Of a stretch of DNA of 64,000 nt, positions 5,658 to 52,957 are shown piece after piece. This DNA is from Gemmatimonadota bacterium (GTDB lineage Bacteria; Gemmatimonadota; Gemmatimonadetes; Palauibacterales; Palauibacteraceae). How positions within the stretch are numbered: position 1 is the stretch's first letter; every line of letters starts with the position of its first letter. Position numbers and translations under genes: made by a program. Below the pieces are notes generated by a model. It was not told the DNA's origin and did not search any database. It saw only the letters and a list, made by a program, of their open reading frames with translations. Location of the stretch: NCBI GenBank assembly GCA_039585235.1, contig JBDGWG010000002.1, positions 27,346-91,345 on the forward strand, read 5' to 3'.

Positions 5658-5952
5658 CGGCCCTGCCTCCGACCTTGGACCGCTGGACCTCGAGACGCGT
5701 GTCCTCGGCTGTCTTGATCGTCACCCGGTCGTCGGTGAGGTGTACGATCTTGCCGATGATCCCGCCGACCGTGACCACCTCATCGCCCCGGCTCAGGGAC
5801 TTCACCATCTCGTCATGCTCCTTCTGCTGCTTCCGCTGCGGCCGGATAAGCAGGAAGTAGAAGATCATGAAGATGGCACCGAACATGAACACCGTGCCAA
5901 ACGGATTCGGCCCGGTCGCGGTCTGCGCCTGAAGAAGTGAGAGGATCAGCAA
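5632..5952 (-). CDS. yajC: preprotein translocase subunit YajC
   Basis: 106 aa with a single TM and the YajC consensus FMFGAIFMIFYFLLIRPQRKQQKEHDEMVKSL. Confidence 0.9.
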   Translation of the reverse strand: MLILSLLQAQTATGPNPFGTVFMFGAIFMIFYFLLIRPQRKQQKEHDEMVKSLSRGDEVVTVGGIIGKIVHLTDDRVTIKTAEDTRLEVQRSKVGGRAGGGAQSDS

Positions 5953-6018
5953 TTTTCAACTCCTCGTGGCCTTCTCCGCGATCTGCGGGAGAGGCCTTCG
6001 CTAGTTCAGTTGTATCGT

Positions 6019-37327: not shown

Positions 37328-38348
37328 CAAGACGACCGACGAGCGCACCGCACGTGCGCTGGACGTCCTCGAAAAGGCACGCGGAGACTTCCACTCGGCC
37401 CTCGTGGCGACGTCGGAGGAGCTCCGCGGCCTGTTGGACGCCGGGAGCGCCACCGCGGAAGCACGGGCCGAGCGCACGGCGGCCGAGCTCGGCGCGTTCG
37501 CCGTAGGGCATATCGATATCGAGAGATTCGCGTCCTTCCAGGAGACCGGTGAGCCGGTGGCGGTCACCGAGGCTCCGAGGATCGAAGCGGCGACCCGGGC
37601 TCTTCAGTCCCTCCTGGAGCACGGCAGCGACCTCTACTTCGTCAGCGTGGAGCCGGGCTCCGACCTGCGCGACGCGGCGACGCGGGCGCTCGGAAGGGCC
37701 GGGCGGGCGTTCGGCGCGGCACGGACGGTGGAGCTGGCGCGCGCCGGCAAGTACGACGAAGGCGCGCACGGCGGGTGGCTGGACAGTTTCCCACCCTCGC
37801 TGTGGAGCCAGCGGGAAAGAGAGCTCGCTCCGCCGCTCGTGATGGAGGTGGAAGGAGCCGACCTGCGACCGGGCGGGCTGGCCGATTTCCTTGATGGCGG
37901 TCAGAAGATCGTGTTGGTGGTTCGCGGGTCCGCCCCTCCAGCCTCGTTGTCCCGGCTCATTACGCCCGGACTACTGGTGGTACAGACCGAGGACCCGGCG
38001 GAGCTGGCCATCGTGGCGGAGGCCGAAGGACCGGCGATCGCCGCGCTCGTCCCGAGCGACGCATGCCGCTTCGTGCACTATCCGGCCCCGGATGGCGGCG
38101 CGGGACGGCTCACGGTGCACCACATGCCTGCGGAGGAGCCGCGACGCGCCCTGGGAAGCATCAGCGTTTTTCAGCAGGTCGAGGCGATGCGGCAGTTGGC
38201 AGCGCTGTCCGCTGGATGGGGACTCGGCGCTTCCGAGACGGCCGTATCGTCCGACGACGGAGCCTCCGGGCCGCCGCCCGCTGCCTCAGCGGCGGACAAG
38301 CTGGCGGCGTGGGTCCTCCGCCAGGCAGACATTTCGGGAACGGGCTGA
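37317..38348 (+). CDS. hypothetical protein (343 aa, Ala/Gly/Leu-rich, no TM, no recognisable motif) embedded between korB and rnfB
   Basis: Long ORF overlapping the korB 3' end by 11 nt, with a 12-nt gap to rnfB. No conserved family was recognised. Confidence 0.5.
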   Translation: MPSDKTTDERTARALDVLEKARGDFHSALVATSEELRGLLDAGSATAEARAERTAAELGAFAVGHIDIERFASFQETGEPVAVTEAPRIEAATRALQSLLEHGSDLYFVSVEPGSDLRDAATRALGRAGRAFGAARTVELARAGKYDEGAHGGWLDSFPPSLWSQRERELAPPLVMEVEGADLRPGGLADFLDGGQKIVLVVRGSAPPASLSRLITPGLLVVQTEDPAELAIVAEAEGPAIAALVPSDACRFVHYPAPDGGAGRLTVHHMPAEEPRRALGSISVFQQVEAMRQLAALSAGWGLGASETAVSSDDGASGPPPAASAADKLAAWVLRQADISGTG

Positions 38349-38359
38349 GGGGGGGACGC

Positions 38360-39211
38360 TTGGACCCTCATGCCATCCTGTCTTCCGTCGCCGTGCTGGG
38401 CGGGGTGGGGCTCACGTTCGGTACCCTGATCGCGATCGCGAACAGGAAGTTGTACGTGTGGGAGGACCCCCGCATCGACGAGATCACCGACATCCTCCCG
38501 GGCGCCAACTGCGGAGCGTGCGGTCTCGCGGGTTGCCGTGCGTTCGCAGAAGCGGCGATCGACGGTCAGATCGCCCCGGCCGGGTGCACGGTGATGGGCG
38601 AGGCCGAGCTGGAGGACGTGGCGGCCATGCTGGGCGTAGATGCCGGCGAGGCCTCGAAGGTCGTGGCCCGCCTGCTGTGCGCAGGTGGCAGCGACGTCGC
38701 GCCGCAGAAGGCCCTGTACGACGGCATCGAGAGCTGCGCGGCCGCCGTTGCGGTGAGTGGCGGCGGGAAGGCGTGTGCGTGGGGGTGCGTCGGACTGGCA
38801 GATTGCGCGGTCGTGTGCACGTTCGACGCGATCCGGATGAACGACGTGGACCTTCCGGTCGTGGTCACGGAAAGGTGCACGGCGTGCAACGACTGCGTGG
38901 AGGCATGCCCGCTCGACCTGTTCGTGCTCATGCCGATGGACCACAAGCTGATCGTGCAGTGCAGGAACCTGCTGGATGGCGACGCGGCGACTGATGTGTG
39001 CGCCGTGGCCTGCAACGCGTGCGGGCGGTGCGCACAGGACGCGCCCGAAGTAGTGACAATGGACGGCGGCCTGGCCGTCGTGGACTATGATAAGATCGAT
39101 TTCGCCGACCCGACGGCGGCGGCGCGCTGCCCCACTGGAGCGATCCGGTGGGTGGAGGGCGCCCAGCACTTCGAGGTCGAGCTGACAGCGGCAGGGAGTC
39201 TAACAGGATGA
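38360..39211 (+). CDS. rnfB: Rnf electron transport complex subunit B (polyferredoxin)
   Basis: N-terminal TM helix, the RnfB signature LPGANCGACGLAGCRAFAEAA, and two further 4Fe-4S CxxCxxCxxxCP motifs. TTG start with a GAGGGGGG RBS. Confidence 0.85.
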   Translation: MDPHAILSSVAVLGGVGLTFGTLIAIANRKLYVWEDPRIDEITDILPGANCGACGLAGCRAFAEAAIDGQIAPAGCTVMGEAELEDVAAMLGVDAGEASKVVARLLCAGGSDVAPQKALYDGIESCAAAVAVSGGGKACAWGCVGLADCAVVCTFDAIRMNDVDLPVVVTERCTACNDCVEACPLDLFVLMPMDHKLIVQCRNLLDGDAATDVCAVACNACGRCAQDAPEVVTMDGGLAVVDYDKIDFADPTAAARCPTGAIRWVEGAQHFEVELTAAGSLTG

Positions 39212-42200
39212 TCAGGCGAAACAGAGGCGACGACCCGGCACCCGAAGCGCGGTACCCGGGCGTTCCGGTGGCGATGGACGGCAGCGAGGCGGTCGTGGAG
39301 ATGGAGACCGCCGCCAGCGAGGGGGCGGGAGCGTACCCGATCACCCCGTCCACTCAGATGGGCGAGGGGTGGGCCGCAGCGAAGGCCGCGGGAAGGACCA
39401 ACGTCAATGGCCGGCGGCTGCTGTTCTTCGAGCCGGAGGGGGAACACGCGGCGGCGGGGGTCACGGCCGGAATGAGCATGACCGGGCTCCGGGCGACCAA
39501 CTTCTCGAGCGGACAGGGCATCGCGTACATGCACGAGTCCCTGTACGCGGCCGTCGGAAAGCGCCTCACGTACGTGCTCAACGTCGCGGCCCGCGCCATG
39601 ACGAAGCACGCCCTGAACGTGCACGCCGGCCACGACGACTACCACGCCGTCGACGACACGGGGTTCTTTCAGGTATTCGCCAAGGACGTCCAGGGGATCG
39701 CCGACCTGACGCTGATCGCCCATCGGATCGCGGAGCTCAGCCTGAATCCGGGGCTCGTGGCGCAGGACGGCTTCCTGACGAGCCATGTGATCGAATCGGT
39801 GCGCTTGCCCGAGCGGGATCTCATCAAGGAGTACCTCGGAGATCCGGCGGACATGATCGAGTCTCCCACCCCGGCGCAGGTGCTCACGTTCGGCGCTACC
39901 CGCCGCCGGATCCCGGAAATGTTCGACCTGGACTACCCCGCCCTCCTCGGGTCGGTGCAGAACCAGGACGCGTACATGCAGGGTGTGGCGGCCCAGCGGC
40001 CGTTCTACTTCGATCACGTGCGGGAGCTCACTGATCAGGCCATGGCGGAGTATGCGGAGCTGACGGGCCGCCGGTACGAGCGGACCCTGGGCTACCTCAT
40101 GGATGACGCCGAGTACGTCCTGGTGGGCCAGGGCTCCGTCGTGTCGAACGCCGAGGCCGTGGCGGACTACCTGCGGGCGGAGCGCGGGCTCAAGGTCGGG
40201 GTGATGGACGTCGTGATGTTCCGCCCGTTCCCCGCCGATCTGATCAGCGCCATGCTGAAGGGCAAGAAGGGCGTCACGGTGCTGGAACGCTGCGACCAGC
40301 CGCTGGCCGTGGACCAGCCGCTGCTGCGGGAAATCCGGGCGGCCATGTCGCAGGGCCAGGAAAACAACCGCGCTTCTCGAGCCGCGAAGAACGGCTCGCG
40401 CCCCTTCCCTCTGGTGGCCGATGTCGCACCCGAGCAGGTGCCCGACTTCTACTCGGCCGGGTTCGGATTCGGGAGCCGGGACCTCCAACCGGCGGACCTC
40501 GTCCTCGCGGTGGAGAACATGCTTCCCGGAGGACGGACGCGGCGCCAATACTATCTCGGGATCGACTTCGTTCGTGAGGGCACGAAGCTCCCGAAGCTGG
40601 AGATCTGGCAGGAAGAACTGCTCGAGCATTACCCGGACCTCGGAGAGCGCGCGCTCGTGCCCGCAGGTGACATCAACCTGCTGCCCGAGGACGCCATCTC
40701 GATGCGCATCCACTCGGTGGGCGGCTGGGGTGCGATCACGATGGGTAAGAACGTGGTCATGACCGCGTTCGAGCTCGCGGGCCTCAACGTCAAGGCGAAT
40801 CCCAAGTACGGGTCCGAGAAGAAGGGCCAGCCGACCACGTTCTACGGCGTGCTCTCCCGCAAGCCGCTGCGCCTGAACGGTGAGCTCCAGTTCGTGAACG
40901 TCGTGCTGTCTCCGGATCCCAACGCGTTCAGCAACTCGAACCCGCTCGCCGGGCTGCAGCCGGGAGGCGTGTTCGTGATCCAGAGCGAACACGAGCCCGA
41001 TGCCCTGTGGGCCTCCCTGCCCGCGCAGGCGCGCCAGGTCATCCAGGAGAACGACATCAAGGTGTTCTCGGTCGACGCGTTCAAGATCGCCACCGAGGAG
41101 GCCACCGATCCGGATCTCCGATACCGGATGCAGGGAACCGCGTTCATGGGCGCCTTCTTCCGCACGTCGCCGTTCATGGAGGCGGAGGGCCTGGACGAGG
41201 AGACCCTGTTCGAGGGGATGCGGAAGCAGCTCGAGAAGAAGTTCGGGCACCTGGGCGAGCGCGTGGTGGAAGCCAACCTCAAGGTGATCCGGCGAGGCTT
41301 CGACGAAGTCCGGCCCATGGTGGTGCAGGGCGAGCTCGTGGGCGCCGGCCAGGTGATGGCGGAGGCGGCGGTGGGCCAGATTCCGACGCTACTCGATCAC
41401 TCCGACCAGGAGTGGGGGATCGGGAACCAGGGCCGGTTCTGGGAGCAGGTGTGCTCGCTGTGCGGACTCGACCAGGACGTGATCGCCGACCCGTTCGCGG
41501 CGATCAGCGCCATTCCGGCCGCCACCAGCACCGTGCGCGACATGTCGGACATCCGTTTCGAGATTCCGGAGTTCATCGCGTCGAAGTGCACGGGGTGCTC
41601 CCAGTGCTGGACGCAGTGCCCGGATGCGGCGATCCCGGGAGTGGTCAACTCGGTGGAGGACGTCCTCCAGGCGGCCATCAGGACCGCCCAGAACGGCAAG
41701 CCCCTGGACCGTATCCAGTCGGTGTCGGCCAACCTGGCCCGCGAGGCGCGCAAAGTCCTGAAAGCCGTCCCGTTCAAGACGTTCGGCGATACCGTCTCGA
41801 CGGCTTACGCCAACCTCGCGGAAAAGCTGCCTTGGGACGCCGAGCGCAAGAAGGAACTGGACGAGGAGTTCGCCGCCGTGTACTCGGTGCTCGCGGACTT
41901 CCCTCTCGCGAAGACGGTTCCGTTCTTCGACAACCACGAAAGCAAGGAAAAGGGCGCGGGCGGCCTCCTGTCGATCACCGTGAATCCCGAGGCCTGCAAG
42001 GGCTGCAACATCTGCGTGGACGTGTGCGCCGACGGCGCGCTCGTGACGGTGCATCAGAACGAGGAGAACCTGGACCTGCTGCGCCGCAACTGGAAGCTGT
42101 GGGAGAACCTTCCCGACACGGCCGACCGGTTCATCAACATCCGGAATCTGGAAGAGGGAATCGGAGTTCTTCCGTCGCTGCTGTTGAAGAAGGAGAACTA

Positions 42201-44337
42201 CCGCACGATGGCGGGAGGTGACGGGGCGTGCATGGGGTGCGGAGAGAAGACGGCCGTGCACCTGATCGTCTCGGCAGTCGAATCGCTGATGCAGCCCCGG
42301 GTCGAGAACTTCGTGGCCCGGATAGAGGAGCTGATCGAGACGCTGGACGGCCAGGCCCGCGAGCTGCTGTCCGCCGATGCGGACCTCGATCTTGCGGCGC
42401 TCGCCGATGGTGAGGCCGCGGAAGTCCCCCTGGACGACGAGAAGCGGGCGCAGCTCAAGCTGTACACGGATGCGATCGCCGCCCTCAAGGACCTGTTGTG
42501 GCGCTACACCAAGGGGCCGAGCGGCCAGGGACGCGCCAACATGGGAATCAGCAACAGCACCGGCTGCTCGTCGGTGTGGGGCAGCACCTTCCCGTACAAC
42601 CCGTATCCGTATCCGTGGGTGAACCACCTGTTCCAGGACTCGCCGTCCGTGGCTATCGGGATCTTCGAAGGCCACATGCGGAAGATGGCGGACGGGTTCA
42701 CCGCCGTGCGCCGGGCCCGGTTGCTCGCCGCCGGCGAGTACGACGCCGAGGTCCACGAGCCCGAGTTCGTCGAGCTCACGTGGCAGGACTTCACGGACGA
42801 GGAGTTCGACCTGTGTCCGCCGATCGTGGCGATGGGCGGCGACGGGGCGATGATGGACATCGGGTTCCAGAACCTGTCCCGGCTCCTCGCCTCAGGTAAG
42901 CCGATCCGGGTGGTCGTGCTGGACACCCAGGTCTACTCGAACACCGGCGGCCAGGCCTGCACGAGCGGGTTCATCGGACAGGTGTCCGACATGGCCGCGT
43001 ACGGCAAGGCCCAGCACGGCAAGGAGGAGACCCGCAAGGAGCTGGCGCTGATCGCCCTCGCGCACCGGGGAGCCTTCGTGCTCCAGTCCTCGCAGGCCTC
43101 GGCGTCGCACATGATCGGCGGCGTGATCCGGGCGCTGAAGTCGCCGCGGCCCGCCGTCATGAACATCTACACGCCGTGTCCGGTGGAGCATGGCCTTGCC
43201 GACGAGTGGGCGCCCAACGCCTCCCGCTTCGCCCTCGAGGGGCGCGCGTTCCCGTTCCTGATCTTCGATCCGGACGCCGGGTCGACGATCGCCGACTGCC
43301 TGGACCTGAGCGGCAACCCCGATCTCGACCAGACGTGGCCAACGTACGAGCTGGAGTACGCAGACGAGGACGGACATTCCCAGAAGATGGAGCTTCCGGT
43401 CACGACCGCGGACTGGGCGGCCACGGAGGGCCGGTTCAAGAAGCACTTCAAGCGGATCAAGCCGGCGGACTGGGACGACGAGCAGGTGCTGTTCCATGAA
43501 TTCCTGGACCTGTCGGAGGACGCGCGGGTCGGCAAGAAGCCCTTCATCTGGGTGATCGACGCGGACAAGAAGCTCGGCCGCCTGGCGTGCTCGATGGAGA
43601 TGGTGCTGCTCGGCGAGGACCGGCTCCTGTACTGGTCGCAGATGAAGGAGCTGGCGGGTCTCGAGGTCCCCGCATCGGTGCGGGCCGACATCGCAGACGA
43701 CATGGAGGCCGAGTTCGAGGCGAAGGCCGCGGCGATCCGCACGGATTACGAGGCGCAGCTCGCGGAGCTCCGCATGAGCTACCCGGCGCTCGTCGCCCGA
43801 CGGATGGCCGAAGGTCTCCTGGCCTCCGGAGACGGGAACCTGACGGTGGCCGAGATCCTGGCCCGGGCGAACGCCGATCCGGACCTGCAGCCGATCACCG
43901 CCGAGGCCGTGGCCGGGCTGGCCGGCGGACTGGGCGTGGACGTGGGCGGCGGAAACGGTGGCGCGACGATCACGGTCGCCCCGGCGGAAGCCGTCGCGGG
44001 GTCCGTGGCGATCGCGGAGGCCACCGAGGTCGCGGAAGTGCCGGTCGCCCCGGCGCCGGCCGCCGAAGACGACGAGGACGATGCCCTCGTGATGGACCCG
44101 TACATCGAGACGGCCCGCTGCACCTCGTGCGACGAGTGCATCAACATCAACAAGAAACTGTTCGCATACGACGAGAACAAGCAGGCGTACATCAAGGACA
44201 GGAACGCCGGCACGTTCGCCGAAATCGTTCAGGCGGCCGAGAAGTGCACCGCCGAGATCATCCACCCGGGCACGCCGCTCAACAAGAAGGAGAAGGACAT
44301 CGAGAAGTGGATCGAGCGGGCGCAGCCGTTCAACTGA
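39208..44337 (+). CDS. pyruvate:ferredoxin (flavodoxin) oxidoreductase, unusually long (1709 aa) with internal insertion and about 385-aa C-terminal extension ending in a ferredoxin-like CxxCxxC...C domain
   Basis: PFOR domains I-VI are recognisable (GAYPITPSTQM, the 2x[4Fe-4S] domain CTGCSQCWTQCP / CKGCNICVDVCA, and the TPP domain GGDGAMMDIG...VLDTQVYSNTGGQ). An insertion of about 100 aa lies between CMGCGEKT and STGCSSVWGS. The C-terminal extension holds a coiled-coil, an Ala/Gly/Val/Glu-rich linker, and RCTSCDECIN...EKCTAEII. ATGA overlap with the rnfB stop. Confidence 0.85.
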   Translation: MIRRNRGDDPAPEARYPGVPVAMDGSEAVVEMETAASEGAGAYPITPSTQMGEGWAAAKAAGRTNVNGRRLLFFEPEGEHAAAGVTAGMSMTGLRATNFSSGQGIAYMHESLYAAVGKRLTYVLNVAARAMTKHALNVHAGHDDYHAVDDTGFFQVFAKDVQGIADLTLIAHRIAELSLNPGLVAQDGFLTSHVIESVRLPERDLIKEYLGDPADMIESPTPAQVLTFGATRRRIPEMFDLDYPALLGSVQNQDAYMQGVAAQRPFYFDHVRELTDQAMAEYAELTGRRYERTLGYLMDDAEYVLVGQGSVVSNAEAVADYLRAERGLKVGVMDVVMFRPFPADLISAMLKGKKGVTVLERCDQPLAVDQPLLREIRAAMSQGQENNRASRAAKNGSRPFPLVADVAPEQVPDFYSAGFGFGSRDLQPADLVLAVENMLPGGRTRRQYYLGIDFVREGTKLPKLEIWQEELLEHYPDLGERALVPAGDINLLPEDAISMRIHSVGGWGAITMGKNVVMTAFELAGLNVKANPKYGSEKKGQPTTFYGVLSRKPLRLNGELQFVNVVLSPDPNAFSNSNPLAGLQPGGVFVIQSEHEPDALWASLPAQARQVIQENDIKVFSVDAFKIATEEATDPDLRYRMQGTAFMGAFFRTSPFMEAEGLDEETLFEGMRKQLEKKFGHLGERVVEANLKVIRRGFDEVRPMVVQGELVGAGQVMAEAAVGQIPTLLDHSDQEWGIGNQGRFWEQVCSLCGLDQDVIADPFAAISAIPAATSTVRDMSDIRFEIPEFIASKCTGCSQCWTQCPDAAIPGVVNSVEDVLQAAIRTAQNGKPLDRIQSVSANLAREARKVLKAVPFKTFGDTVSTAYANLAEKLPWDAERKKELDEEFAAVYSVLADFPLAKTVPFFDNHESKEKGAGGLLSITVNPEACKGCNICVDVCADGALVTVHQNEENLDLLRRNWKLWENLPDTADRFINIRNLEEGIGVLPSLLLKKENYRTMAGGDGACMGCGEKTAVHLIVSAVESLMQPRVENFVARIEELIETLDGQARELLSADADLDLAALADGEAAEVPLDDEKRAQLKLYTDAIAALKDLLWRYTKGPSGQGRANMGISNSTGCSSVWGSTFPYNPYPYPWVNHLFQDSPSVAIGIFEGHMRKMADGFTAVRRARLLAAGEYDAEVHEPEFVELTWQDFTDEEFDLCPPIVAMGGDGAMMDIGFQNLSRLLASGKPIRVVVLDTQVYSNTGGQACTSGFIGQVSDMAAYGKAQHGKEETRKELALIALAHRGAFVLQSSQASASHMIGGVIRALKSPRPAVMNIYTPCPVEHGLADEWAPNASRFALEGRAFPFLIFDPDAGSTIADCLDLSGNPDLDQTWPTYELEYADEDGHSQKMELPVTTADWAATEGRFKKHFKRIKPADWDDEQVLFHEFLDLSEDARVGKKPFIWVIDADKKLGRLACSMEMVLLGEDRLLYWSQMKELAGLEVPASVRADIADDMEAEFEAKAAAIRTDYEAQLAELRMSYPALVARRMAEGLLASGDGNLTVAEILARANADPDLQPITAEAVAGLAGGLGVDVGGGNGGATITVAPAEAVAGSVAIAEATEVAEVPVAPAPAAEDDEDDALVMDPYIETARCTSCDECININKKLFAYDENKQAYIKDRNAGTFAEIVQAAEKCTAEIIHPGTPLNKKEKDIEKWIERAQPFN

Positions 44338-44370: not shown

Positions 44371-45696
44371 ATGCTCGGATCCAGCACATTCAGACACGGC
44401 GTGCACCCGCCGGAGACCAAGCAGCTGACCGAGAGCGTGCCGGTGCGGCGCATGCCGTTCCCCGAGGAGATCGTCCTTCCTCTACGCCAGCACGCCGGCC
44501 GGCCGGCCCGTCTGCTCGTGAAGGTCGGCGATCACGTCGAGCGGGGCGACAAGGTGGCCGAGGCGGACGGTTTCGTCTCGGTCCCGATCCATGCTTCCGC
44601 CGCCGGCACGGTGAAGGGCATGCGGCTGTGTCCCCATCCGGACGGGTCGATGGCCGAGTCAGTGGTCATCGCAGTGGACCGGTACTCCCCACAGGTACCG
44701 AGGCCGCGCATCGTCCCCAGGTGGGAAGGCCTGTCGCCGCAGCAGGTGGTGGAGGAGGTCCAGAAGGCCGGAGTCGTGGGTCTCGGGGGCGCCGCCTTCC
44801 CGACGCACGTGAAGCTGCTCCCTCCGGAGGACGTCCCCGTTCACACTCTGATCATCAACGGAGCGGAGTGCGAACCGTACCTGACCACCGATCACCGCAC
44901 GATGGTCGAGTATCCGGAGAGAGTGCAGTTCGGGAGCCGGATCATGATGAAGGCGCTGGGCGTCGAGAAGGCGGTCATCGGAGTCGAGAAGAACAAGCCG
45001 GACGCCATCGCCCGGCTGCGCGCGACCTTGCCCGACGACCTCGACGTTTCCGTGGTGCCGCTCACGGTAAAGTATCCGCAGGGCGCCGAGAAGATGCTGA
45101 TCAAGGCGGTGACGGGGCGTGAGGTCCCTTCCGGCAAGCTTCCGATGAACGTGGGCGTCGTGGTGCAGAACGTCGGGTCCATCGCCTGTATCGGAGAGAT
45201 CTTCGAGACCGGTTACCCCCTGATCGAGCGCGTCGTGACCGTCACCGGGCCCGGGGTCCGGAAGCCCTCGAACCTGATCGTCCCCGTGGGCACGCGGCTC
45301 CGGGACGTCCTGGAGTTCTGCGACGGGCTGACCGAGGACGCCGCCCAGATCGTGTTTGGCGGCCCCATGATGGGGGCCGCGCAGCCCGACCTCGACACCC
45401 CCCTCATCAAGGGCACGACAGGCGTGGTCGTGCTCACGAGCGAGGAGGCCCGGTCCGTGGAGCGCTATCCGTGCATCCACTGCGGTCGCTGCCTCGAGGC
45501 GTGTCCCGTGTTCCTCAACCCATCGCTCCTCGGCACGCAGGCGCAGGCGGGCCGGTACGAGGAGATGGAAGCCTCGCACCTCATGGACTGCATGCTGTGC
45601 GGGTGCTGCTCGTACGTATGCCCGTCGAACATCCCGCTGTCGCAGATGTTCGCGCTCGGAAAGAACATGCTCCGCAAGCGGAAGGCGGCGGCATGA
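44371..45696 (+). CDS. rnfC: Rnf complex subunit C
   Basis: GAAFPTHVKL motif and two ferredoxin motifs CIHCGRCLEACP / CMLCGCCSYVCP, 441 aa. Confidence 0.9.
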   Translation: MLGSSTFRHGVHPPETKQLTESVPVRRMPFPEEIVLPLRQHAGRPARLLVKVGDHVERGDKVAEADGFVSVPIHASAAGTVKGMRLCPHPDGSMAESVVIAVDRYSPQVPRPRIVPRWEGLSPQQVVEEVQKAGVVGLGGAAFPTHVKLLPPEDVPVHTLIINGAECEPYLTTDHRTMVEYPERVQFGSRIMMKALGVEKAVIGVEKNKPDAIARLRATLPDDLDVSVVPLTVKYPQGAEKMLIKAVTGREVPSGKLPMNVGVVVQNVGSIACIGEIFETGYPLIERVVTVTGPGVRKPSNLIVPVGTRLRDVLEFCDGLTEDAAQIVFGGPMMGAAQPDLDTPLIKGTTGVVVLTSEEARSVERYPCIHCGRCLEACPVFLNPSLLGTQAQAGRYEEMEASHLMDCMLCGCCSYVCPSNIPLSQMFALGKNMLRKRKAAA

Positions 45697-46760
45697 GCGA
45701 TGCGAGCCCCGGACGCGGACCGGGCGCTGGTACCTATCTCGATTCCCTGACCGAAATCCGGCTGAGGATCGCGGCCTCGCCGCACCTGCGGTCCTCCCAC
45801 TCCACGCCCCGCATCATGTGGAACGTGGTGGGATCGCTCGTGCCGATCCTGGCGGTCGCGACGTACTTCTTCGGCCCGAGCGCGCTCCTGGTCGTCGGCG
45901 CCGCCACTATCGGCGCCGTGGGCACGGAGCGCCTGTTCGGCCACAAGGGCAGCACGGCGGACGGCTCGGCCGTGATCACGGGCCTTCTGCTCGGCCTGAT
46001 CCTGCCACCTGGTTTTCCCCTGTGGATGGCTTTCCTCGGCGGCGTGTTCGGGGTCGGGTTCGGCAAGCTCATCTTCGGTGGGCTGGGACAGAACGTGTTC
46101 AACCCGGCCCTCCTGGGGCGGGCGTTCCTGCAAGCGGCCTTCCCGATCGCGATCACCACCTGGCCGGTCCAGCCGGTGAGCTGGTGGTCGCTGCGGGGCG
46201 ACAACTTCGCGTTGCCCCTGATGTCTCCGGGCGCACCCGACGTAGCCACCGGCGCCACGCCGCTCGGCCTCATGAAGTTCGAGGGACTGTCCACGAACAC
46301 GCTCGATCTCATGATGGGTTCGACCGCCGGCTCGATCGGCGAAACGGCCGGGCTGCTGATCCTGGTGTGCGGGGGCTATCTGGCTCTGAGGAAGTATCTC
46401 GACTGGCGGATCCCCCTGAGCATCTTTCTCACGGTGTTCGCGTTCTCGGGCCTCCTGTACCTGATCGGCCCCGACCGCTTCCCCAACCCCGTGTTCATGC
46501 TGTTCTCCGGTGGCCTCATGCTCGGCGCCCTGTACATGGCCACCGACCTGGTCACGTCACCCGTGACGCCAGCAGGCTCGTGGATCTTCGGCATCGGCAT
46601 CGGGCTGCTCGTCGTCCTCATCCGGGTATGGGGTGGGCTGCCGGAAGGGGTGATGTACGCGATCCTGTTCATGAACGCGCTCGTGCCGTTCATCGACCGG
46701 GCCACGCAACCGCGGGTGTTCGGGCAGCCGCGCCGGAAGCCGAAGGGAGCGGAGGCATGA
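45693..46760 (+). CDS. rnfD: Rnf complex subunit D
   Basis: Polytopic NqrB/RnfD-like sequence (IGAVGTERLF, the flavinylation region TGATPLG). ATGA overlap with rnfC. Confidence 0.85.
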   Translation: MSDASPGRGPGAGTYLDSLTEIRLRIAASPHLRSSHSTPRIMWNVVGSLVPILAVATYFFGPSALLVVGAATIGAVGTERLFGHKGSTADGSAVITGLLLGLILPPGFPLWMAFLGGVFGVGFGKLIFGGLGQNVFNPALLGRAFLQAAFPIAITTWPVQPVSWWSLRGDNFALPLMSPGAPDVATGATPLGLMKFEGLSTNTLDLMMGSTAGSIGETAGLLILVCGGYLALRKYLDWRIPLSIFLTVFAFSGLLYLIGPDRFPNPVFMLFSGGLMLGALYMATDLVTSPVTPAGSWIFGIGIGLLVVLIRVWGGLPEGVMYAILFMNALVPFIDRATQPRVFGQPRRKPKGAEA

Positions 46761-47527
46761 AGGAGCTCCCCACGGCCCAGGTCGACGACGGCGGCTCGGA
46801 TTCCGGTATGCCAGGACCTCCGCAGGTAGCCTCCGGGAAGCTGATGGCCACACTGGCCATCGCGGGTGCTGTCGCGGGCCTGGCGATCGTGCTCGTGTTC
46901 CAGTGGGCCGATCCGCAGATCCAGGCGCACCGGGCAGCCGCGCTCCGCGCCGCCGTGCTCGAGGTCCTGAGCGAGCCGGCGAGCTATCAGTCCCTGTACG
47001 TGACTGACGCAGGTCTCAGTGATGCGGCGCCGGCGGGGGTGGACACGGTCAGGGCGGAGAAGGTGTTTCTCGGCTTCGACGAAGCGGGGGATCCGGTCGG
47101 CTACGCCGTCACGGGGGCCGAGCCTGGTTTTCAGGACTTCATTCACCTGATCTTCGGGTTCGATCCGGGCGCGGGGCGCCTGCTCGGGATGAAGGTCCTC
47201 GAGAGCAAGGAGACGCCCGGCCTCGGCGACAAGATCTACAAGGACATGGACTTCGTGACCGAATTCCAGGGGGTGGAAGCTCCGATCGTGGGGGTTAAGC
47301 CGGGAAGGGCGACGGGCGCCGCCAACGAGGTGGATATGATCACCGGAGCCACGATCTCCTCGCGCACCGTGATCGGGATCATCAACCACCGGGTCGAGGA
47401 GCTGGGCTCCGACATGGAAGCGCACGCGGCTACCGGCCCCCGGGCGATGGAAAGACCTGATCCGGCCGCCACGGACGAAGCCGGCGGGGACGAAGCCGGC
47501 GCGCACGGGGGTGAGGCAGGGTCATGA
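46757..47527 (+). CDS. rnfG: Rnf complex subunit G (FMN-binding)
   Basis: N-terminal TM and the FMN_bind motif MITGATISSRTV. ATGA overlap with rnfD. Confidence 0.85.
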   Translation: MKELPTAQVDDGGSDSGMPGPPQVASGKLMATLAIAGAVAGLAIVLVFQWADPQIQAHRAAALRAAVLEVLSEPASYQSLYVTDAGLSDAAPAGVDTVRAEKVFLGFDEAGDPVGYAVTGAEPGFQDFIHLIFGFDPGAGRLLGMKVLESKETPGLGDKIYKDMDFVTEFQGVEAPIVGVKPGRATGAANEVDMITGATISSRTVIGIINHRVEELGSDMEAHAATGPRAMERPDPAATDEAGGDEAGAHGGEAGS

Positions 47528-48186
47528 GAGAAACCACGCCGCGCGAAGACCTGATCCGGGGCATCTGGAAGGAAAACCCGGTGCTGGTGCAGCTCCTCGG
47601 ACTGTGCCCTGCCCTGGCGGTCACCAACACGGTTCCCAACAGCATCGCCATGGGTCTCGCCACCTTCTTCGTGCTCATGGGGTCGAGCCTTCTCGTTTCC
47701 TTGTTCAAGAACTGGATCCCCTCCGAGGTCCGGATCTCCGCGTACATCCTGATCATAGCGACGTTCGTCACCATCGCCGACTTCGTGCTCGCGGCGGTCG
47801 TGCCCCTGATCCACAAGGAGCTTGGCGCTTTCATCGCGCTGATCGTCGTCAACTGCATGATACTCGGCCGTCAGGAGGCGTTCGCGTCCAAGAGGCCCGT
47901 CGGAAGGTCTCTTCTCGACGCGGCGGGAACCGGTGCCGGCTTCATGATCGCGATGCTGATGATGGGCACGTTTCGTGAAGTACTCGGGAACGGATCCATC
48001 ATGGGATACAGCGTCCTCGGCGAGAACTTCGAGCCGTGGATCGTGATGATCCTGCCACCGGGCGGCTTCCTCACACTGGGCTTCATCCTCCTCGGCTTCG
48101 GCTGGTGGAAGCAGCGCCAGGCGGAATCGATCCGGGTGCGGCAGTGGCCGCACGGGGTGGCGAGCGGAGAGGAGGAGGCGGCGTGA
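47524..48186 (+). CDS. rnfE: Rnf complex subunit E
   Basis: NPVLVQLLGLCPALAVTN... NqrD/RnfE signature. ATGA overlap with rnfG. Confidence 0.9.
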   Translation: MRETTPREDLIRGIWKENPVLVQLLGLCPALAVTNTVPNSIAMGLATFFVLMGSSLLVSLFKNWIPSEVRISAYILIIATFVTIADFVLAAVVPLIHKELGAFIALIVVNCMILGRQEAFASKRPVGRSLLDAAGTGAGFMIAMLMMGTFREVLGNGSIMGYSVLGENFEPWIVMILPPGGFLTLGFILLGFGWWKQRQAESIRVRQWPHGVASGEEEAA

Positions 48187-48761
48187 TGGGCGAGCTGTTC
48201 TGGATCCTCCTCTCGGCGATGCTGGTCAACAACTTCACCCTGCATCTGTTCCTCGGCCTGTGCCCGTTCATGGGCGTGTCGGCGAAGGTAGAGACGGCGC
48301 TGCGCATGGGGCTCGCGAACATCTTCGTCCTTGTGATGACCTCGGTGTGCGTGTGGCTCCTGAACACGTTCATCCTGGTCTACGCCCCGTATTTGAGGCT
48401 GATTTCGTTCATAGTCGTGATCGCGTCCTTCGTGCAGATCACGGAGATGGCGATCAAGAAGTTCAGCCCCACCCTGTTTCGGCAGCTCGGGATCTTCCTG
48501 CCGCTGATCACCACGAACTGCGCGATCCTCGGATACGCGATCTTCAATACGAACCGGGGCTATGGCTTCCTGCAGGGCCTGTTCTTCGCCATTGGGGCCG
48601 GCCTCGGACTCACTCTGGCCCTCGTGCTGATGGCGTCGATCCGCGAGACGTCGGAGACCGCCAGCATCCCGGCCGTGGCCCGCAACATGGGCCTGGTGCT
48701 GATAATCGCGGGTAGTCTTTCGCTGGCGTTCATGGGCTTCGCGGGGCTGTTCACATCGTGA
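48186..48761 (+). CDS. rnfA: Rnf complex subunit A
   Basis: LVNNFTLHLFLGLCPFMGVS... NqrE/RnfA signature. TGATG overlap with rnfE. Confidence 0.9.
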   Translation: MGELFWILLSAMLVNNFTLHLFLGLCPFMGVSAKVETALRMGLANIFVLVMTSVCVWLLNTFILVYAPYLRLISFIVVIASFVQITEMAIKKFSPTLFRQLGIFLPLITTNCAILGYAIFNTNRGYGFLQGLFFAIGAGLGLTLALVLMASIRETSETASIPAVARNMGLVLIIAGSLSLAFMGFAGLFTS

Positions 48762-48810
48762 TTATCGCGCGGCAACTTTGCGGGCAGGGCGTACGTAGAG
48801 GGGCACAGAA

Positions 48811-48966
48811 ATGACCACGTTTCTGGCGATCGCCGGACTCGCCTTGCTGTTCGTGGTGTTCGGTGCCTTCCGTCCCGGTGCGAAGGGGACGTGCGGCGAC
48901 TGCTCGTGCGCCGAGGGCACGTGCCAACTCGAAGAAGAGGAAGCGTCGGACCTCCACCATTCCTGA
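48811..48966 (+). CDS. small Cys-rich membrane protein (51 aa; FeoB-associated Cys-rich membrane protein-like: TM helix followed by CGDCSCAEGTC)
   Basis: Not in the ORF track because it is under 60 aa. It has an AGAGGGG RBS 7 nt upstream and reads MTTFLAIAGLALLFVVFGAFRPGAKGTCGDCSCAEGTCQLEEEEASDLHHS. Confidence 0.55.
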   Translation: MTTFLAIAGLALLFVVFGAFRPGAKGTCGDCSCAEGTCQLEEEEASDLHHS

Positions 48967-48979
48967 GGAAGGACCACAG

Positions 48980-49213
48980 ATGGACAGGCATTGGGCCTAC
49001 TGTTCGGCGTGCGACAGGCAGGTCGAGGTCATGGTGAGACCAGCCGGGCCGGCGGACCCTTCGACCGGAAAGCGGGTGGACGAACTCGTGTGCCTGGAGG
49101 TGGGTCATACGTGCACGGGTGCGTTGTGCCCGATCGCGGACGTCACGCCGGAAGAGATGCGCGACGCCCTGGACCGCACCTGGGCGCAGCCTGACTCAAG
49201 GGGAGAGGAGTAA
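48980..49213 (+). CDS. small cysteine-containing protein (77 aa, CxxC...C...C...C, putative zinc-ribbon-like)
   Basis: MDRHWAYCSACDRQVEV... with a GGAAGGA RBS. The upstream extension of the ORF-track ORF is Arg-rich and overlaps the 51-aa gene out of frame. Confidence 0.5.
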   Translation: MDRHWAYCSACDRQVEVMVRPAGPADPSTGKRVDELVCLEVGHTCTGALCPIADVTPEEMRDALDRTWAQPDSRGEE

Positions 49214-49216
49214 GCC

Positions 49217-49501
49217 ATGCCGACGGGAGTCGACTGGATACCGATCGTAGCGATCGTGATGGGAACGCTTACCGTGCTCATTCCGCTATCTCTGATCACT
49301 TTACGCTATGCGATCAAGCCGATCGCCGAGGCCGTGGCCCAGATGCGGTCATCTGGCGCCTCACAAGAGCAGATCGCCGTGATGCAGCAGCGGCTGGCGC
49401 TCCTCGAGCAGCAGTTCGGCGGGCTGGAGACGGAGGTGCACCGGATCGGTGAGGCGCAGGACTTCCAGGCGGAGCTGCTGAAGCCGGCCGAAGACGCCTG
49501 A
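49217..49501 (+). CDS. small membrane protein with C-terminal coiled-coil (94 aa)
   Basis: TM segment IPIVAIVMGTLTVLIPLSLI followed by a heptad-like QQRLALLEQQFGGLETEV. Confidence 0.5.
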   Translation: MPTGVDWIPIVAIVMGTLTVLIPLSLITLRYAIKPIAEAVAQMRSSGASQEQIAVMQQRLALLEQQFGGLETEVHRIGEAQDFQAELLKPAEDA

Positions 49502-49708
49502 TCGGTAACGCCGCAGCAGATAGACGCTTCGGCGCGGACTCCGACCTCCCGCCTTGCCTGCGCATCGGTCCACGGCTACCGTGTGGCAGTCCCCCCGCGG
49601 AGGCTGCTTCAAACTCACCTCAAGCAGGAGGCCGCGATGAGGCATTTTCTACTATCGCATCCGTTTCCCGCGCTTTCTCTCGCCCACCGGCAGTCCACTC
49701 TTCATTCC

Positions 49709-52700
49709 ATGCTTCGCCGCGCCACGCTCCCAGTTCTGACCGTGGCGTTTCTGCTGCTCACGAGCGGCGATGTGCTGGCGCAGGGCGTGACGACGGGTGG
49801 CGTAGACGGAGTGGTGACGAGCGCGGCGGCCCTGCCGCTGGTTGGTGTCACCGTAACGGCCGTGCACGAGCCCAGCGGAACCACGTACGAGACCACAACC
49901 CGTTCGGGCGGCGTGTTCACGATCGGGGGCATGCGCGTCGGAGGCCCCTACACGGTGACGGCTGCCATTCTAGGCCACCAGCAGGAGATCCAGCAGGGAA
50001 TCAACGTCGTCCTGGGCCAGAACGCTCGGTTGAGCTTCACGCTGGCAGAGACGGCGATCGAGCTGGAGGCGCTGACGGTTCGGGCCGACCAGGACTTGGT
50101 CCTGAACAGCGACCGGACGGGTGCGGCGACGACCATCCCGCACACGGAAGTGCTGGCCCTGCCTTCGGTCCAGCGGAGCGTGCGCGACCTGACGCGGCTC
50201 GATCCGCGCAACGACGGGAACTTCAGCTTCGGTGGGCGGAACTGGCTGTACAACAACATCACGCTGGATGGCTCCTACTTCAACAACTCGTTCGGTCTGG
50301 ACGACCCGGCGCCCGGTGGCCAGACGGCTACCGAGCCGGTTCCGTACGACGCCGTGGAGCAGGTGAGCGTCCAGGTGGCCCCGTTCGACGTACGTCAGAG
50401 CGGGTTTACGGGCGCCAGTATCAATACGGTCACCCGGAGCGGAACCAACAAGTGGAAGGTCTCGGGCTTCGCCTTCTTCCGTAACGACAACCTGGTGGGG
50501 AACAAGGTGAGCGGCGAAGACGTGATCGCGAATCCCGACCTGAGCTTCGGCCAGTATGGCTTCAGCGTGGGCGGGCCTATCATCCAGGACAAACTGTTCT
50601 TCTTCTTAAGCGGCGAGTTGACGCAGCGGGATGATCCGGGATCGAACTTCGTTCCGTCCAGCGGCGGCACGCCGGCGTTCGGAGAGTCGCGGGTCGAGCA
50701 GGCGACGCTGGACGCGATCACGGAACGTATGGCCACGGTTTACAGTTACGACACGGGCCCTTACTCCGGCTTCGTCCACGAGACCAACAGCAACAAGGTG
50801 TTGCTGAAGGTGGACTGGAACGTGAGCTCGAATCACAACATCATGTTCCGCTACAACCGGCTCGACGCGGAGCGCGACCTGCCGCCGCACCCGTTCGTGC
50901 TCAGCATCTTCGACTCGGGTCGCGGGCCCAACAACACCAGCCTCCCATCCCAGAACTCCGGGTATCGGATCACCAACGAGCTCAACTCGTACGCGTTCGA
51001 GTGGAACGCTCGGGCCGGCCGGGGGCAGTGGGCCAACCGGTTCTACGCGAGCTATAACCGGTTCCGGGACTTCCGCGATGCGAACAGCGTGCCGTTCCCG
51101 ACGCTCGAGATCGCCGATGGCGGCGTCACGTACACAACGGTCGGACACGAGCCGTTCTCGATCGAGAACAACCTCGACACGGACGTGTGGCAGTTCACGA
51201 ACGACTTCACGTACTTCACGGGCCGGCACAGCCTAACGCTCGGCGCCAACTTCGAGCAGTTCCGGTTCTTCAACTCGTTCAACCTGTTCCGGTACGGGAC
51301 CTTCGGATTCCCCGGCGGCGCGGGCAACTTCAGCAGCCTGGATGACTTCTTCACCCGAACTGACCCGACCGATCCTAATTTCTATGACGCGGAGTCCTTC
51401 ATTGTAACGGGTGACTACAAGGGCGAGAAGTTCAACCTGGGACAGCTGGGCGTGTACTTGCAGGACCAGTTCGTGATCAGCCCGACGTTCACCCTCAACG
51501 CCGGGCTCCGCGTGGACTTCCCCATGTACTTCACCGATCCGGTGGACAACCAGTTCTCGCGAGATCTCATTGCAATCAACGGCGACGGCGAGTCGGTCAC
51601 GGTCGACCAGAGTCAACTGGCCGGTAGCACGCCCCTGTGGTCGCCCCGGATCGGCTTCAACTGGGACGTCACCGGAGACCGTTCGACGCAGTTGCGCGGC
51701 GGGACCGGGATCTTCACGGGCCGTCTGCCGTTCGTGTGGATCGGAAACGTGTTCTCCAACCCGAGCACGAATCCCAATATTTGGCCTGACGCGCCCAAAG
51801 TGGTCACGAGCGGCCCACGGCCGGGCTCCGGCGAGGATAGCTTCATCCTGCAGCAGTCGTTCGACGGCGTCGCCGCGATGGATCCCGACTTCAAGTGGCC
51901 GCAGATGTGGACGAGCAACATCGCCATCGATCAGCGGCTGCCGTGGGACATGGTGGGAACGCTGGAGTTCATCTACGGCAAGGACATCAACAACATCTAC
52001 ATGCAGAACATGGACCTCCCCGTTGCGACGGAGTTTCTCGCGGATGGGAGGCCGAACTACCAGGGCCTGCGCAACAATCCTGATCCCAACTTCCTGGGCA
52101 GGTCGATGTACGTTCTGAGCAACACCGACGAGGGCCGCAACTACAACATTACGGTGCAGCTCCGGAAACAGTGGGAGAGCGGCCTCGGACTCGGGCTGTC
52201 CTACGCCTACCTGGACGCCACCAACACGCTCAAATCGACGGAGATCGCGAGCGTTCTGTGGGGTGGTCAGCCGACGAACGGGAACCCGAACCTGCCGGTC
52301 GCCTCCCCCTCCGAGTTCGGCCAGCGGCACCGGATCGTGGCCACGGGAACGTACAACAAGAGGTGGAGCGATCTACTCCGGACGAGCTTTGGCCTGTTCT
52401 GGGAGGTCGCCGAAGGCAATACGTTCCGTAACGGCGGCAACCGCTACTCGTTCATCTACTCCGGTGACGTGAACGGAGACGGGGCGACCAACGACCTGAT
52501 CTTCATTCCGGAGACTCAGAGCGACGTCAACCTCGAGGATCCGACGCAGTGGAGCGCGCTCAACGCGTTCATCGAGCAGGACAGCTACCTGAGCAGCCAC
52601 CGGGGAGAGATCGCCGAGCGGTTCGGCCTGCTGAACCCGTGGTACACGGACCTGTCCCTGCGGATTCTGCAGGACTTCATCTTCGGTAGCGGCGACACGG

Positions 52701-52957
52701 ACAACGTGCTCCAGGTCAGCTTCGACTTCGAGAACCTGCTGAACCTGTTCAGCTCGAGCTGGGGCGTGCGGCAGGTGGCGAACCCGGCAGCCACGAACTT
52801 CCTCGGGTGCACAACTGATGGGGAAGCCTCCCCCTGCGTGATCGAGAACGGCCAGCCGCAGGTCTCGTTCACCGGCGTGCAGGAGACGTTCGTTGACGAC
52901 CTGAGCGAGTTCTCCCGCTGGCGGATCCAGCTCGGTCTCAGGTACTTCATGGACTGA
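49709..52957 (+). CDS. TonB-dependent outer-membrane receptor, Oar-like (N-terminal carboxypeptidase-regulatory-like domain)
   Basis: Signal peptide MLRRATLPVLTVAFLLLTSGDVLAQ, a CarbopepD_reg-like GVVTSAAALPLVGVTVTAV...GGVFTI, a plug and a long beta-barrel, with C-terminal RYFMD. About 1082 aa. Confidence 0.8.
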   Translation: MLRRATLPVLTVAFLLLTSGDVLAQGVTTGGVDGVVTSAAALPLVGVTVTAVHEPSGTTYETTTRSGGVFTIGGMRVGGPYTVTAAILGHQQEIQQGINVVLGQNARLSFTLAETAIELEALTVRADQDLVLNSDRTGAATTIPHTEVLALPSVQRSVRDLTRLDPRNDGNFSFGGRNWLYNNITLDGSYFNNSFGLDDPAPGGQTATEPVPYDAVEQVSVQVAPFDVRQSGFTGASINTVTRSGTNKWKVSGFAFFRNDNLVGNKVSGEDVIANPDLSFGQYGFSVGGPIIQDKLFFFLSGELTQRDDPGSNFVPSSGGTPAFGESRVEQATLDAITERMATVYSYDTGPYSGFVHETNSNKVLLKVDWNVSSNHNIMFRYNRLDAERDLPPHPFVLSIFDSGRGPNNTSLPSQNSGYRITNELNSYAFEWNARAGRGQWANRFYASYNRFRDFRDANSVPFPTLEIADGGVTYTTVGHEPFSIENNLDTDVWQFTNDFTYFTGRHSLTLGANFEQFRFFNSFNLFRYGTFGFPGGAGNFSSLDDFFTRTDPTDPNFYDAESFIVTGDYKGEKFNLGQLGVYLQDQFVISPTFTLNAGLRVDFPMYFTDPVDNQFSRDLIAINGDGESVTVDQSQLAGSTPLWSPRIGFNWDVTGDRSTQLRGGTGIFTGRLPFVWIGNVFSNPSTNPNIWPDAPKVVTSGPRPGSGEDSFILQQSFDGVAAMDPDFKWPQMWTSNIAIDQRLPWDMVGTLEFIYGKDINNIYMQNMDLPVATEFLADGRPNYQGLRNNPDPNFLGRSMYVLSNTDEGRNYNITVQLRKQWESGLGLGLSYAYLDATNTLKSTEIASVLWGGQPTNGNPNLPVASPSEFGQRHRIVATGTYNKRWSDLLRTSFGLFWEVAEGNTFRNGGNRYSFIYSGDVNGDGATNDLIFIPETQSDVNLEDPTQWSALNAFIEQDSYLSSHRGEIAERFGLLNPWYTDLSLRILQDFIFGSGDTDNVLQVSFDFENLLNLFSSSWGVRQVANPAATNFLGCTTDGEASPCVIENGQPQVSFTGVQETFVDDLSEFSRWRIQLGLRYFMD

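Follow-up and report, generated by a model that had tools for sequence, protein, structure and literature searches.

Small cysteine-tailed membrane peptides encoded directly downstream of rnfA in PFOR-containing rnf operons

In a 64,000-nt stretch of the Gemmatimonadota contig JBDGWG010000002.1 (hereafter the window), the rnfA gene is followed by three small open reading frames (ORFs), the first of which encodes a 51-aa peptide with one transmembrane (TM) helix and a tail carrying four Cys. Judged by its sequence, this peptide (ORF1) is a member of a distinct, unnamed and Rnf-linked family that lies outside both Pfam and NCBIfam. The linkage of the family to rnfA is essentially invariant, crosses phylum labels and is usually accompanied by translational coupling. 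Small membrane peptides with Cys tails are already known beside metal systems, namely those of the PF12669 family and NqrM; a family dedicated to Rnf in this position has no entry in either database, and no paper on a small Cys-rich peptide in rnf operons was found in the literature searched.

The Rnf and NQR complexes are central ion-pumping redox machines, and the assembly of an intramembrane Fe-S centre has been addressed experimentally only for NQR, via NqrM. The ORF1 family provides a concrete candidate for an Rnf maturation factor or for an overlooked small subunit. If a reading of ORF1 as a dedicated factor is true, it would define an unrecognised maturation step for a widespread, PFOR-coupled variant of Rnf, which occurs in several phyla according to the labels of metagenome-assembled genomes (MAGs). 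A distinct type of operon, composed of rnfB, a gene for a PFOR-ferredoxin fusion and rnfCDGEA, is flagged at the same time, and ORF2 represents a second uncharacterised family, with five Cys, that is tied to the same operon. Annotation readily overlooks peptides of about 45-60 aa, and the Rnf gene sets recorded in these lineages are therefore incomplete.

Coding status of the small ORFs and linkage of ORF1 to rnfA

The GC content of the window is 66.6%, and its nearest relatives are MAGs of Gemmatimonadota. Because chance ORFs are frequent in GC-rich DNA, the coding status of the three ORFs was tested directly. Their coordinates and lengths (Table 1) and the gaps between them (49 nt from rnfA to ORF1, 13 nt from ORF1 to ORF2 and 3 nt from ORF2 to ORF3) agreed exactly with a first-pass annotation made from the sequence alone. 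The good ribosome-binding site that this annotation had reported for ORF1 was recovered as a purine-rich, Shine-Dalgarno-like site, and such a site also precedes the start codons of ORF2 and ORF3. The GC content at third codon positions (GC3) was 0.80-0.82 in the proposed frames and was frame-specific. In pairwise comparisons with relatives, the ratio of nonsynonymous to synonymous substitution rates (dN/dS) was 0.15-0.31 for ORF1, 0.09-0.50 for ORF2 and 0.07-0.60 for ORF3, with most comparisons over the three ORFs falling at 0.07-0.3. Given the ribosome-binding sites, the coding-like GC3 and these mostly low ratios, ORF1, ORF2 and ORF3 are genuine protein-coding genes under purifying selection. 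The opposite reading, that the small ORFs are untranslated chance frames in GC-rich DNA, could draw on the long spurious ORFs in which both strands of the window are rich, on the size of ORF1, which is below the usual length limits of gene finders, and on the related locus L061, where the peptide was left uncalled. It is effectively refuted, and we regard its probability as negligible, in view of dN/dS values well under 1, the frame specificity of GC3, a Cys and TM motif that stays invariant down to about 20-30% identity, homologues that number in the hundreds, the presence of ribosome-binding sites and the same position of the genes in related loci.

Hydropathy analysis revealed a strong hydrophobic segment in ORF1 (residues 4-20, Kyte-Doolittle KD17 2.69) and another in ORF3 (residues 11-27, KD17 2.40), and no such segment was found in ORF2. 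The architectures proposed in the first-pass annotation were thus recovered for all three proteins: in ORF1, a TM helix followed by a Cys cluster (Cys 28, 31, 33 and 38); in ORF2, a CxxC plus three further Cys (Cys 8, 11, 38, 45 and 50); and in ORF3, one TM helix plus a coiled coil, the latter seen in profile matches to coiled-coil proteins of the PDB. A scan of positions 48600-49800 detected no promoter or terminator pattern on the + strand, and this result, together with the gaps of 13 and 3 nt, fits co-transcription of ORF2 and ORF3 with rnfA and ORF1.

ORF1 consists of an N-terminal TM helix (residues about 4-20), the basic residues R21 and K25, the four Cys C28, C31, C33 and C38, and an acidic tail; the Cys are spaced Cx2CxCx4C, with the local motif GTCGDC. 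Members of the family are peptides of 43-79 aa with one N-terminal TM helix (motif LFxxFGL), then basic residues, then four Cys, and the charges flanking the helix are negative or neutral before it and basic after it. In the family alignment L13, F17, C28, C31 and C38 are invariant, F14 is nearly so and G18 is conserved, while the position of the fourth Cys varies and both Cys spacing and tail length differ widely among members. A word-indexed search of 5.8 billion proteins retrieved 69 relatives, none of which carries a precomputed Pfam domain; their names are absent or 'hypothetical', save for one evidently wrong automatic JGI label, and the exact ORF1 protein of the window was already present in the database (P0011). 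Exhaustive HMMER searching of 1.84 billion cluster representatives gave 461 matches at E<=0.001, among which 18 reached E<=1e-10, and all named members among these representatives are called 'hypothetical'. ORF1 had no match in NCBIfam. When the family profile was compared with the sequences of the PDB, only TM-helix noise was obtained and no related solved structure was found.

Two independent directions of retrieval were used to examine gene linkage, which the first-pass annotation had proposed as a check on its small ORFs. In a scan with RnfA, taking one genome per species, 44 loci were obtained, almost all from Gemmatimonadota, and 38 of these had downstream sequence. An ORF of 41-69 aa encoding a TM helix and four Cys directly follows rnfA in 37 of the 38; in the lone exception (L033) the contig ends at this point, and tblastn still picks up the start of the peptide. 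In most loci the offset between the rnfA stop codon and the start of the peptide is 0 or -3 nt; it is 23-50 nt in the closest relatives of the window and 59 nt in L023. From the side of the peptide, nine family members were looked up by exact sequence, with distant ones chosen on purpose, and all nine directly follow rnfA, including one on a chimeric contig (L051) that keeps only the C-terminal end of RnfA. Some of the peptide-retrieved loci come from MAGs labelled Lysobacterales or Planctomycetota. Wherever the upstream region is visible, a PFOR of about 1660-1730 aa and then rnfCDGEA precede the peptide. The next gene is apbE in all seven peptide-retrieved loci having downstream sequence. 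The proposed conservation of ORF1 was found from both sides. ApbE is the flavin transferase that acts in the maturation of RnfD and RnfG.

In most related operons beyond the window's own clade, the gene directly after the peptide is apbE. No tblastn match to apbE was obtained anywhere in the 64-kb window, and in this clade it must therefore lie elsewhere in the genome; its slot is occupied there by ORF2 and ORF3. In L061, which lies on a contig of 1.9 Mb, no gene was called for the peptide, and yet it is clearly encoded between rnfA and apbE at positions 5866-5994 (MSTLVGILVAAALFALFGLVGHRPRCGGSCGGCESACALKESE). The ORF1 family is probably under-annotated in general. The open frame at positions 1-744 of L051, in which a RibB-like gene is joined to the C-terminus of RnfA, is an assembly chimera and not a real fusion.

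Comparison of ORF1 with known Cys-rich membrane proteins and its possible role

A parallel to ORF1 in architecture and gene context is offered by NqrM. According to the review PMC12174285, NqrM is apparently needed for inserting the intramembrane [2Fe-2S] cluster of Na+-NQR; a role in maturation has experimental support for NqrM only (Kostyrko 2016; Agarwal 2020; both as cited there). Neither of the two reviews searched, this one included, mentions an equivalent of NqrM for Rnf. For comparison, real nqrM genes were taken from Leisingera and Providencia plasmids and relatives were gathered to a set of 18 diverse NqrM sequences. In the nqr operons examined, nqrF is followed by apbE and nqrM, and the NqrM sequences comprise a TM helix, basic residues and four Cys. 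ORF1 resembles NqrM in being a small protein with an N-terminal TM helix, basic residues and four Cys, and both families stand at the tail of operons for homologous pumps of the RNF/NQR type with apbE adjoining, although the adjacency to apbE holds for most ORF1 relatives and not for the window or its closest clade. A counterpart of the presumed target, four Cys between two subunits of the Rnf-Nqr family, is also present here in RnfA and RnfE. NqrM differs from ORF1 in its invariant GSCGG, its length of 75-82 aa and its basic helical tail, as opposed to GTCGDC, 51 aa and an acidic tail, and the gene order is also different, with apbE preceding nqrM in the nqr operons and following the peptide in the ORF1 family. 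Homology to NqrM was considered and rejected: hhalign of the ORF1 family against the 18 NqrM aligned only 7 N-terminal columns, and PF04400 (DUF539) gave no match at E<=10 to ORF1 or to the family members scanned. On these grounds the relation is one of analogy in architecture and gene context, and not of homology.

RnfA of the window contains Cys26 and Cys112, and RnfE contains Cys28 and Cys111; from published RNF/NQR structures we take these four residues to be the intramembrane ligands of a [2Fe-2S] cluster. Because basic residues follow the helix of ORF1, the positive-inside rule would place its Cys tail in the cytoplasm, where Fe-S assembly occurs, and we infer that the Cys cluster faces this side. 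The cytoplasmic tail could then bind iron or an Fe-S cluster and help to build or maintain the [2Fe-2S] held by RnfA and RnfE, so that ORF1 would work like NqrM of the homologous Na+-NQR without being homologous to it. On the simplest view, ORF2 would belong to this module as a metal-binding partner or a regulator in the cytoplasm; ORF3 would be a lineage-specific add-on. By analogy with what has been proposed for NqrM, we tentatively favour an accessory role of this kind, in which the peptide would bind iron or a cluster and serve in building or maintaining the RnfA/RnfE centre. A more specific version seems doubtful to us, namely that ORF1 may be dedicated to inserting or repairing the RnfA/RnfE [2Fe-2S], as an independently evolved counterpart of NqrM, with ORF2 as its cytoplasmic metal donor in Gemmatimonadota.

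Several observations weigh against this accessory role. Neither PF04400 nor hhalign connects ORF1 with NqrM. In Parabacteroides rnfA is followed by galE and in Monoglobus by rnfB, with no such peptide; as these well-studied Rnf operons do without it, the peptide is not generally required for cluster insertion. The variable Cys spacing fits loose metal binding and predicts no specific cofactor, and translational coupling to rnfA fits a stoichiometric subunit equally well. As for the neighbouring genes, apbE is not adjacent in the window's clade and is absent from the 64-kb window, the structure prediction for ORF2 is poor (pLDDT 57) with no similar known protein, and ORF3 is limited to one clade, in which it is syntenic with a downstream gene for a TonB-dependent receptor.

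The main rival, which we consider rather unlikely, would make ORF1 a permanent component of this Rnf variant, a small subunit whose single helix packs on RnfA/RnfE and whose cytoplasmic Cys4 site (Fe, Fe-S or Zn) has a structural or electron-transfer role; such a subunit might possibly help to dock the ferredoxin domain tethered to the PFOR of the operon. In most loci the start codon of the peptide gene overlaps the stop codon of rnfA or adjoins it, an arrangement that suits production in equal amounts, and the family is tied to a PFOR-containing operon wherever the upstream gene is visible. The slot after rnfA is filled by rnfB in the clostridial rnfCDGEAB operons, and a single TM helix followed by a Cys motif of the CGxC(G) type is common to ORF1 and the N-terminus of RnfB, a likeness that would speak for the subunit. 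RnfB is, however, a protein of about 190-355 aa with ferredoxin domains, and the Pfam scan of the ORF1 family found no match to the Fe-S and ferredoxin domains of RnfB in ORF1. The idea of a 'mini-RnfB' was downgraded on two results. A full rnfB gene was located in the same operon (38360-39211); it had at first seemed to be absent, as the related loci ended 6 kb upstream. In addition, hhalign of the ORF1 family against RnfB N-termini gave a probability of 22% and required a 20-residue gap. The operon encodes a complete RnfB with both its Fe-S domain and a membrane anchor, and therefore lacks none of the functions of RnfB and needs no replacement module for electron entry. The variability in Cys spacing and tail is, moreover, unusual for a precisely positioned redox centre, and the neighbouring apbE serves in maturation and is not a structural gene.

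The first-pass annotation had regarded the TM helix and Cys cluster of ORF1 as the hallmark of the FeoB-associated Cys-rich membrane peptides (PF12669) and had suggested an HMM match as a check. The PF12669 hidden Markov model (HMM) matched ORF1 at E=0.002 with 18.8 bits, which falls short of the gathering score of 27. Among Pfam families, PF12669 alone was matched recurrently by the ORF1 family (14 of 25 family members at E<=10 and 96 of 140 representatives at E<=1), with only 3 of the 140 representatives reaching roughly the gathering score. Peptides of PF12669 occur mainly in Firmicutes and Bacteroidetes, downstream of feoB or fused to it, and have the motif Cx3-5Cx2-3Cx6-8C; they have been proposed as FeoC-like elements whose Cys motif is associated with iron binding, and their function and even their translation are unproven (PMC8749426). 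Both groups are very small proteins with one N-terminal TM helix and a short, Cys-rich and presumably metal-binding tail. The ORF1 family differs in its Cx2CxCx4C spacing, in being adjacent to rnfA instead of feoB, and in its hosts, which are high-GC Gemmatimonadota and MAGs labelled Lysobacterales or Planctomycetota; feoB was not seen among the called genes and ORFs of the loci whose gene content was listed. What stands of the earlier assignment is therefore the layout and a sub-threshold match, and what falls is membership, in view of the score, the Cys spacing and the missing feoB: on its sequence ORF1 would be no more than distantly related to PF12669 and stands outside the family as curated.

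A generic metal-sensing or iron-handling (FeoC-like) peptide of the PF12669 type that is merely co-expressed with an iron-hungry complex would agree with PF12669 being the sole recurrent Pfam match and with the FeoC-like role proposed for its peptides (PMC8749426). We judge this explanation to be improbable. The score of ORF1 is below the cut-off, few representatives reach it, the Cys motif differs and no feoB lies nearby in the loci whose gene content was listed; above all, the linkage to rnfA is exclusive and tightly coupled, far tighter than loose co-regulation would need, which makes a generic role less likely. For the accessory role in maturation favoured above, the weak but recurrent PF12669 matches count as a sign of metal-binding kinship.

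RseC, a protein of the SoxR-reducing system, is like ORF1 a small Cys-containing membrane protein tied to Rnf/Rsx operons. It has an N-terminal Cys motif and two TM helices. In Parabacteroides an annotated gene of the RseC family (139 codons) lies directly upstream of rnfB; the RseC gene thus precedes rnfB, whereas the ORF1 gene follows rnfA, and the Pfam RseC family gave no match to ORF1.

The five-Cys ORF2 family and the clade-restricted ORF3

ORF2 is probably a member of a metal-binding, zinc-ribbon-like family, as suggested by its Cys pattern. Its Cys residues (C8, C11, C38, C45 and C50) are all invariant, together with Y7, V15, G47 and P51, and they are laid out as a CxxC knuckle, about 27 residues, and then C-x6-C-x4-CP. 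As in zinc ribbons and rubredoxin-like proteins, the CxxC lies between two predicted beta-strands and a second group of Cys comes later; five invariant Cys and the unusual C-x6-C-x4-CP of the second half set it apart from zinc ribbons, in which two CxxC-type knuckles on beta-hairpins coordinate one metal. A profile search collected 880 relatives (E<=0.001), none of which has a Pfam domain. Their source names are 'hypothetical' except for two automatic JGI labels, and those names that give a taxon all point to Gemmatimonadota. ORF2 itself had nothing significant in Pfam or NCBIfam, where BsaP was a weak match (NCBIfam, E=0.019, over 17 residues). An AlphaFold2 (AF2) model built from a 44-sequence alignment had a pLDDT of 57 and showed beta-hairpins around the CxxC and a C-terminal helix; a Foldseek search of this model against the PDB returned a best E of 0.87, and comparison of the family profile with PDB sequences gave noise only.

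The ORF2 family is genuinely tied to the rnf operon. It was found in the operon tail in 22 related loci, and both of the two look-ups made from the side of ORF2 led to a gene located past rnfA and apbE. The peptide gene has ORF2 as its immediate downstream neighbour in the window's clade. Other clades carry rnfA, peptide, apbE, the short form of ORF2 and a long form, in that order, and in L012 the long form comes directly after the peptide. In this long paralogue (126-136 aa; Table 1) the five-Cys N-terminal domain is joined by a second, zinc-ribbon-like unit (CxxC...CxxC) and by a beta-rich tail that is conserved. The second unit has weak matches to zinc-ribbon families of Pfam. The long paralogue usually stands right after the short form, and the window has the short form only.

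ORF3 is, from its sequence, a clade-restricted and membrane-anchored protein with a predicted cytoplasmic coiled coil. It comprises a TM helix (residues about 8-30), the juxtamembrane motif LR(F/Y)AIKPIAEA and a coiled coil (about 50-80). Homologues with 33-92% identity were found in 14 loci, all in the window's clade. ORF3 belongs to no Pfam family and gave noise only in NCBIfam, and the only PDB chains that its profile matched were coiled coils, either designed or of the GCN4 type, along residues of about 50-80. ORF3 is weakly linked to Rnf, its ties being only the 3-nt spacing and the co-orientation. Tandem pairs of ORF3-like genes occur in L001 (4295-4555 and 4611-4895), L003 (7042-7308 and 7360-7635) and L007 (7022-7291 and 7370-7678), in which the second copy is about 46-48% identical to ORF3 of the window and, in L007, has an internal stop; the window has a single copy.

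A large gene at 49637-52957, which begins 135 nt past ORF3, appears by eye to encode a TonB-dependent receptor and may be a separate transcription unit. The receptor gene is syntenic after ORF3 across most of the window's clade (L001-L011). It does not follow ORF3 in L013, and a ThiC-like gene separates the two in L003. In L039 (7040-8662) ORF3 is fused by a frameshift to the receptor, which is an artefact and not a real fusion.

These observations bear on whether ORF2 and ORF3 might be unrelated to Rnf, that is, lineage-specific genes lying between the operon and the receptor, with a function in the envelope or in uptake or with nothing essential to do. The confinement of ORF3 to one clade, the receptor that is syntenic after it in L001-L011 and the want of a family or structural match for either protein would agree with this possibility. 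We hold it to be fairly unlikely, as the ORF2 family stays in the rnf tail despite changes of neighbours, often as a pair of short and long forms, as the gaps of 13 and 3 nt, with no terminator or promoter found on the + strand, argue for co-transcription with rnfA and ORF1, and as the link to the receptor is broken in L003 and L013. The suggestion of the first-pass annotation that all three small proteins are accessory to the Rnf/PFOR module accordingly fares differently for each of them: the linkage is very strong for ORF1, moderate for ORF2 (the 22 loci and both look-ups) and weak for ORF3, which is seen in the window's own clade only.

The PFOR-containing rnf operon and its surroundings

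The operon of the window runs in the order rnfB, PFOR-ferredoxin fusion, rnfC, rnfD, rnfG, rnfE, rnfA, ORF1, ORF2 and ORF3 (Table 1). The earlier context of this locus is corrected here in that the operon includes a complete rnfB upstream of the PFOR gene. Searches by tblastn with RnfB of Parabacteroides, Monoglobus and E. coli traced a full rnfB at about 38369-39163, and the Parabacteroides query alone gave E=4e-48 over 38375-39157. The product has a TM helix as its membrane anchor, the Fe-S motif CGACGLAGC and ferredoxin domains.

Table 1. Coordinates of the operon genes and small ORFs of the window and of the long ORF2 paralogues in related loci
Feature	Locus	Position	Strand	Remarks
rnfB, TTG start inferred	window	38360-39211	+	tblastn
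PFOR, ~1709 aa	window	39208-44337	+	POR_N, PFOR_II, POR and TPP_enzyme_C domains
rnfC	window	44371-45696	+	counterparts in related loci carry RnfC_N, Complex1_51K
rnfD, start codon inferred	window	45693-46760	+	counterparts in related loci carry PF03116
rnfG (FMN_bind subunit), start codon inferred	window	46757-47527	+	counterparts in L045-L050 carry PF04205
rnfE	window	47524-48186	+	PF02508, E=2.9e-62
rnfA	window	48186-48761	+	PF02508, E=1.4e-54; TIGR01943
ORF1, 51 aa, MTTFLAIAGLALLFVVFGAFRPGAKGTCGDCSCAEGTCQLEEEEASDLHHS	window	48811-48966	+	TM + Cys4 peptide
ORF2, 77 aa	window	48980-49213	+	soluble, acidic, five Cys
ORF3, 94 aa	window	49217-49501	+	one TM, coiled coil, no Cys
ORF2 long paralogue	L012	6848-7237
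ORF2 long paralogue	L020	7930-8337
ORF2 long paralogue	L024	7984-8364
ORF2 long paralogue	L032	7945-8325
ORF2 long paralogue	L034	3786-4166
ORF2 long paralogue	L040	8033-8413
ORF2 long paralogue	L060	5667-6077
ORF2 long paralogue	L061	7001-7405

The placement of the PFOR gene between rnfB and rnfC is an unusual layout for an rnf operon, and no description of a PFOR-containing rnf operon was found in the literature searched. A ferredoxin domain with a single cluster is joined by a linker to the C-terminus of PFOR (residues 1634-1686; Fer4_13 at 25.4 bits, cut-off 24.5). L045-L050 and L061 show the same succession of a PFOR gene (1660-1750 aa) and rnfCDGEA; the carriers are Gemmatimonadota and MAGs labelled Lysobacterales and Planctomycetota. 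The operon may form a dedicated pyruvate-to-NAD+ ion-pumping module. The merging of rnfG, rnfE and rnfA into one frame in L062 (4285-5874) is an artefact of assembly or frameshift and not a real fusion.

Upstream of rnfB, a 343-aa ORF (37317-38348) ends 11 nt ahead of the inferred start of rnfB and is possibly where the operon begins. The rnf/PFOR operon is closely preceded by a pair of neighbouring genes (34464-37327; 637 and 317 aa). Judged by eye, their products resemble the alpha and beta subunits of a 2-oxoacid:ferredoxin oxidoreductase, and the pair would suggest a larger, ferredoxin-centred gene neighbourhood.

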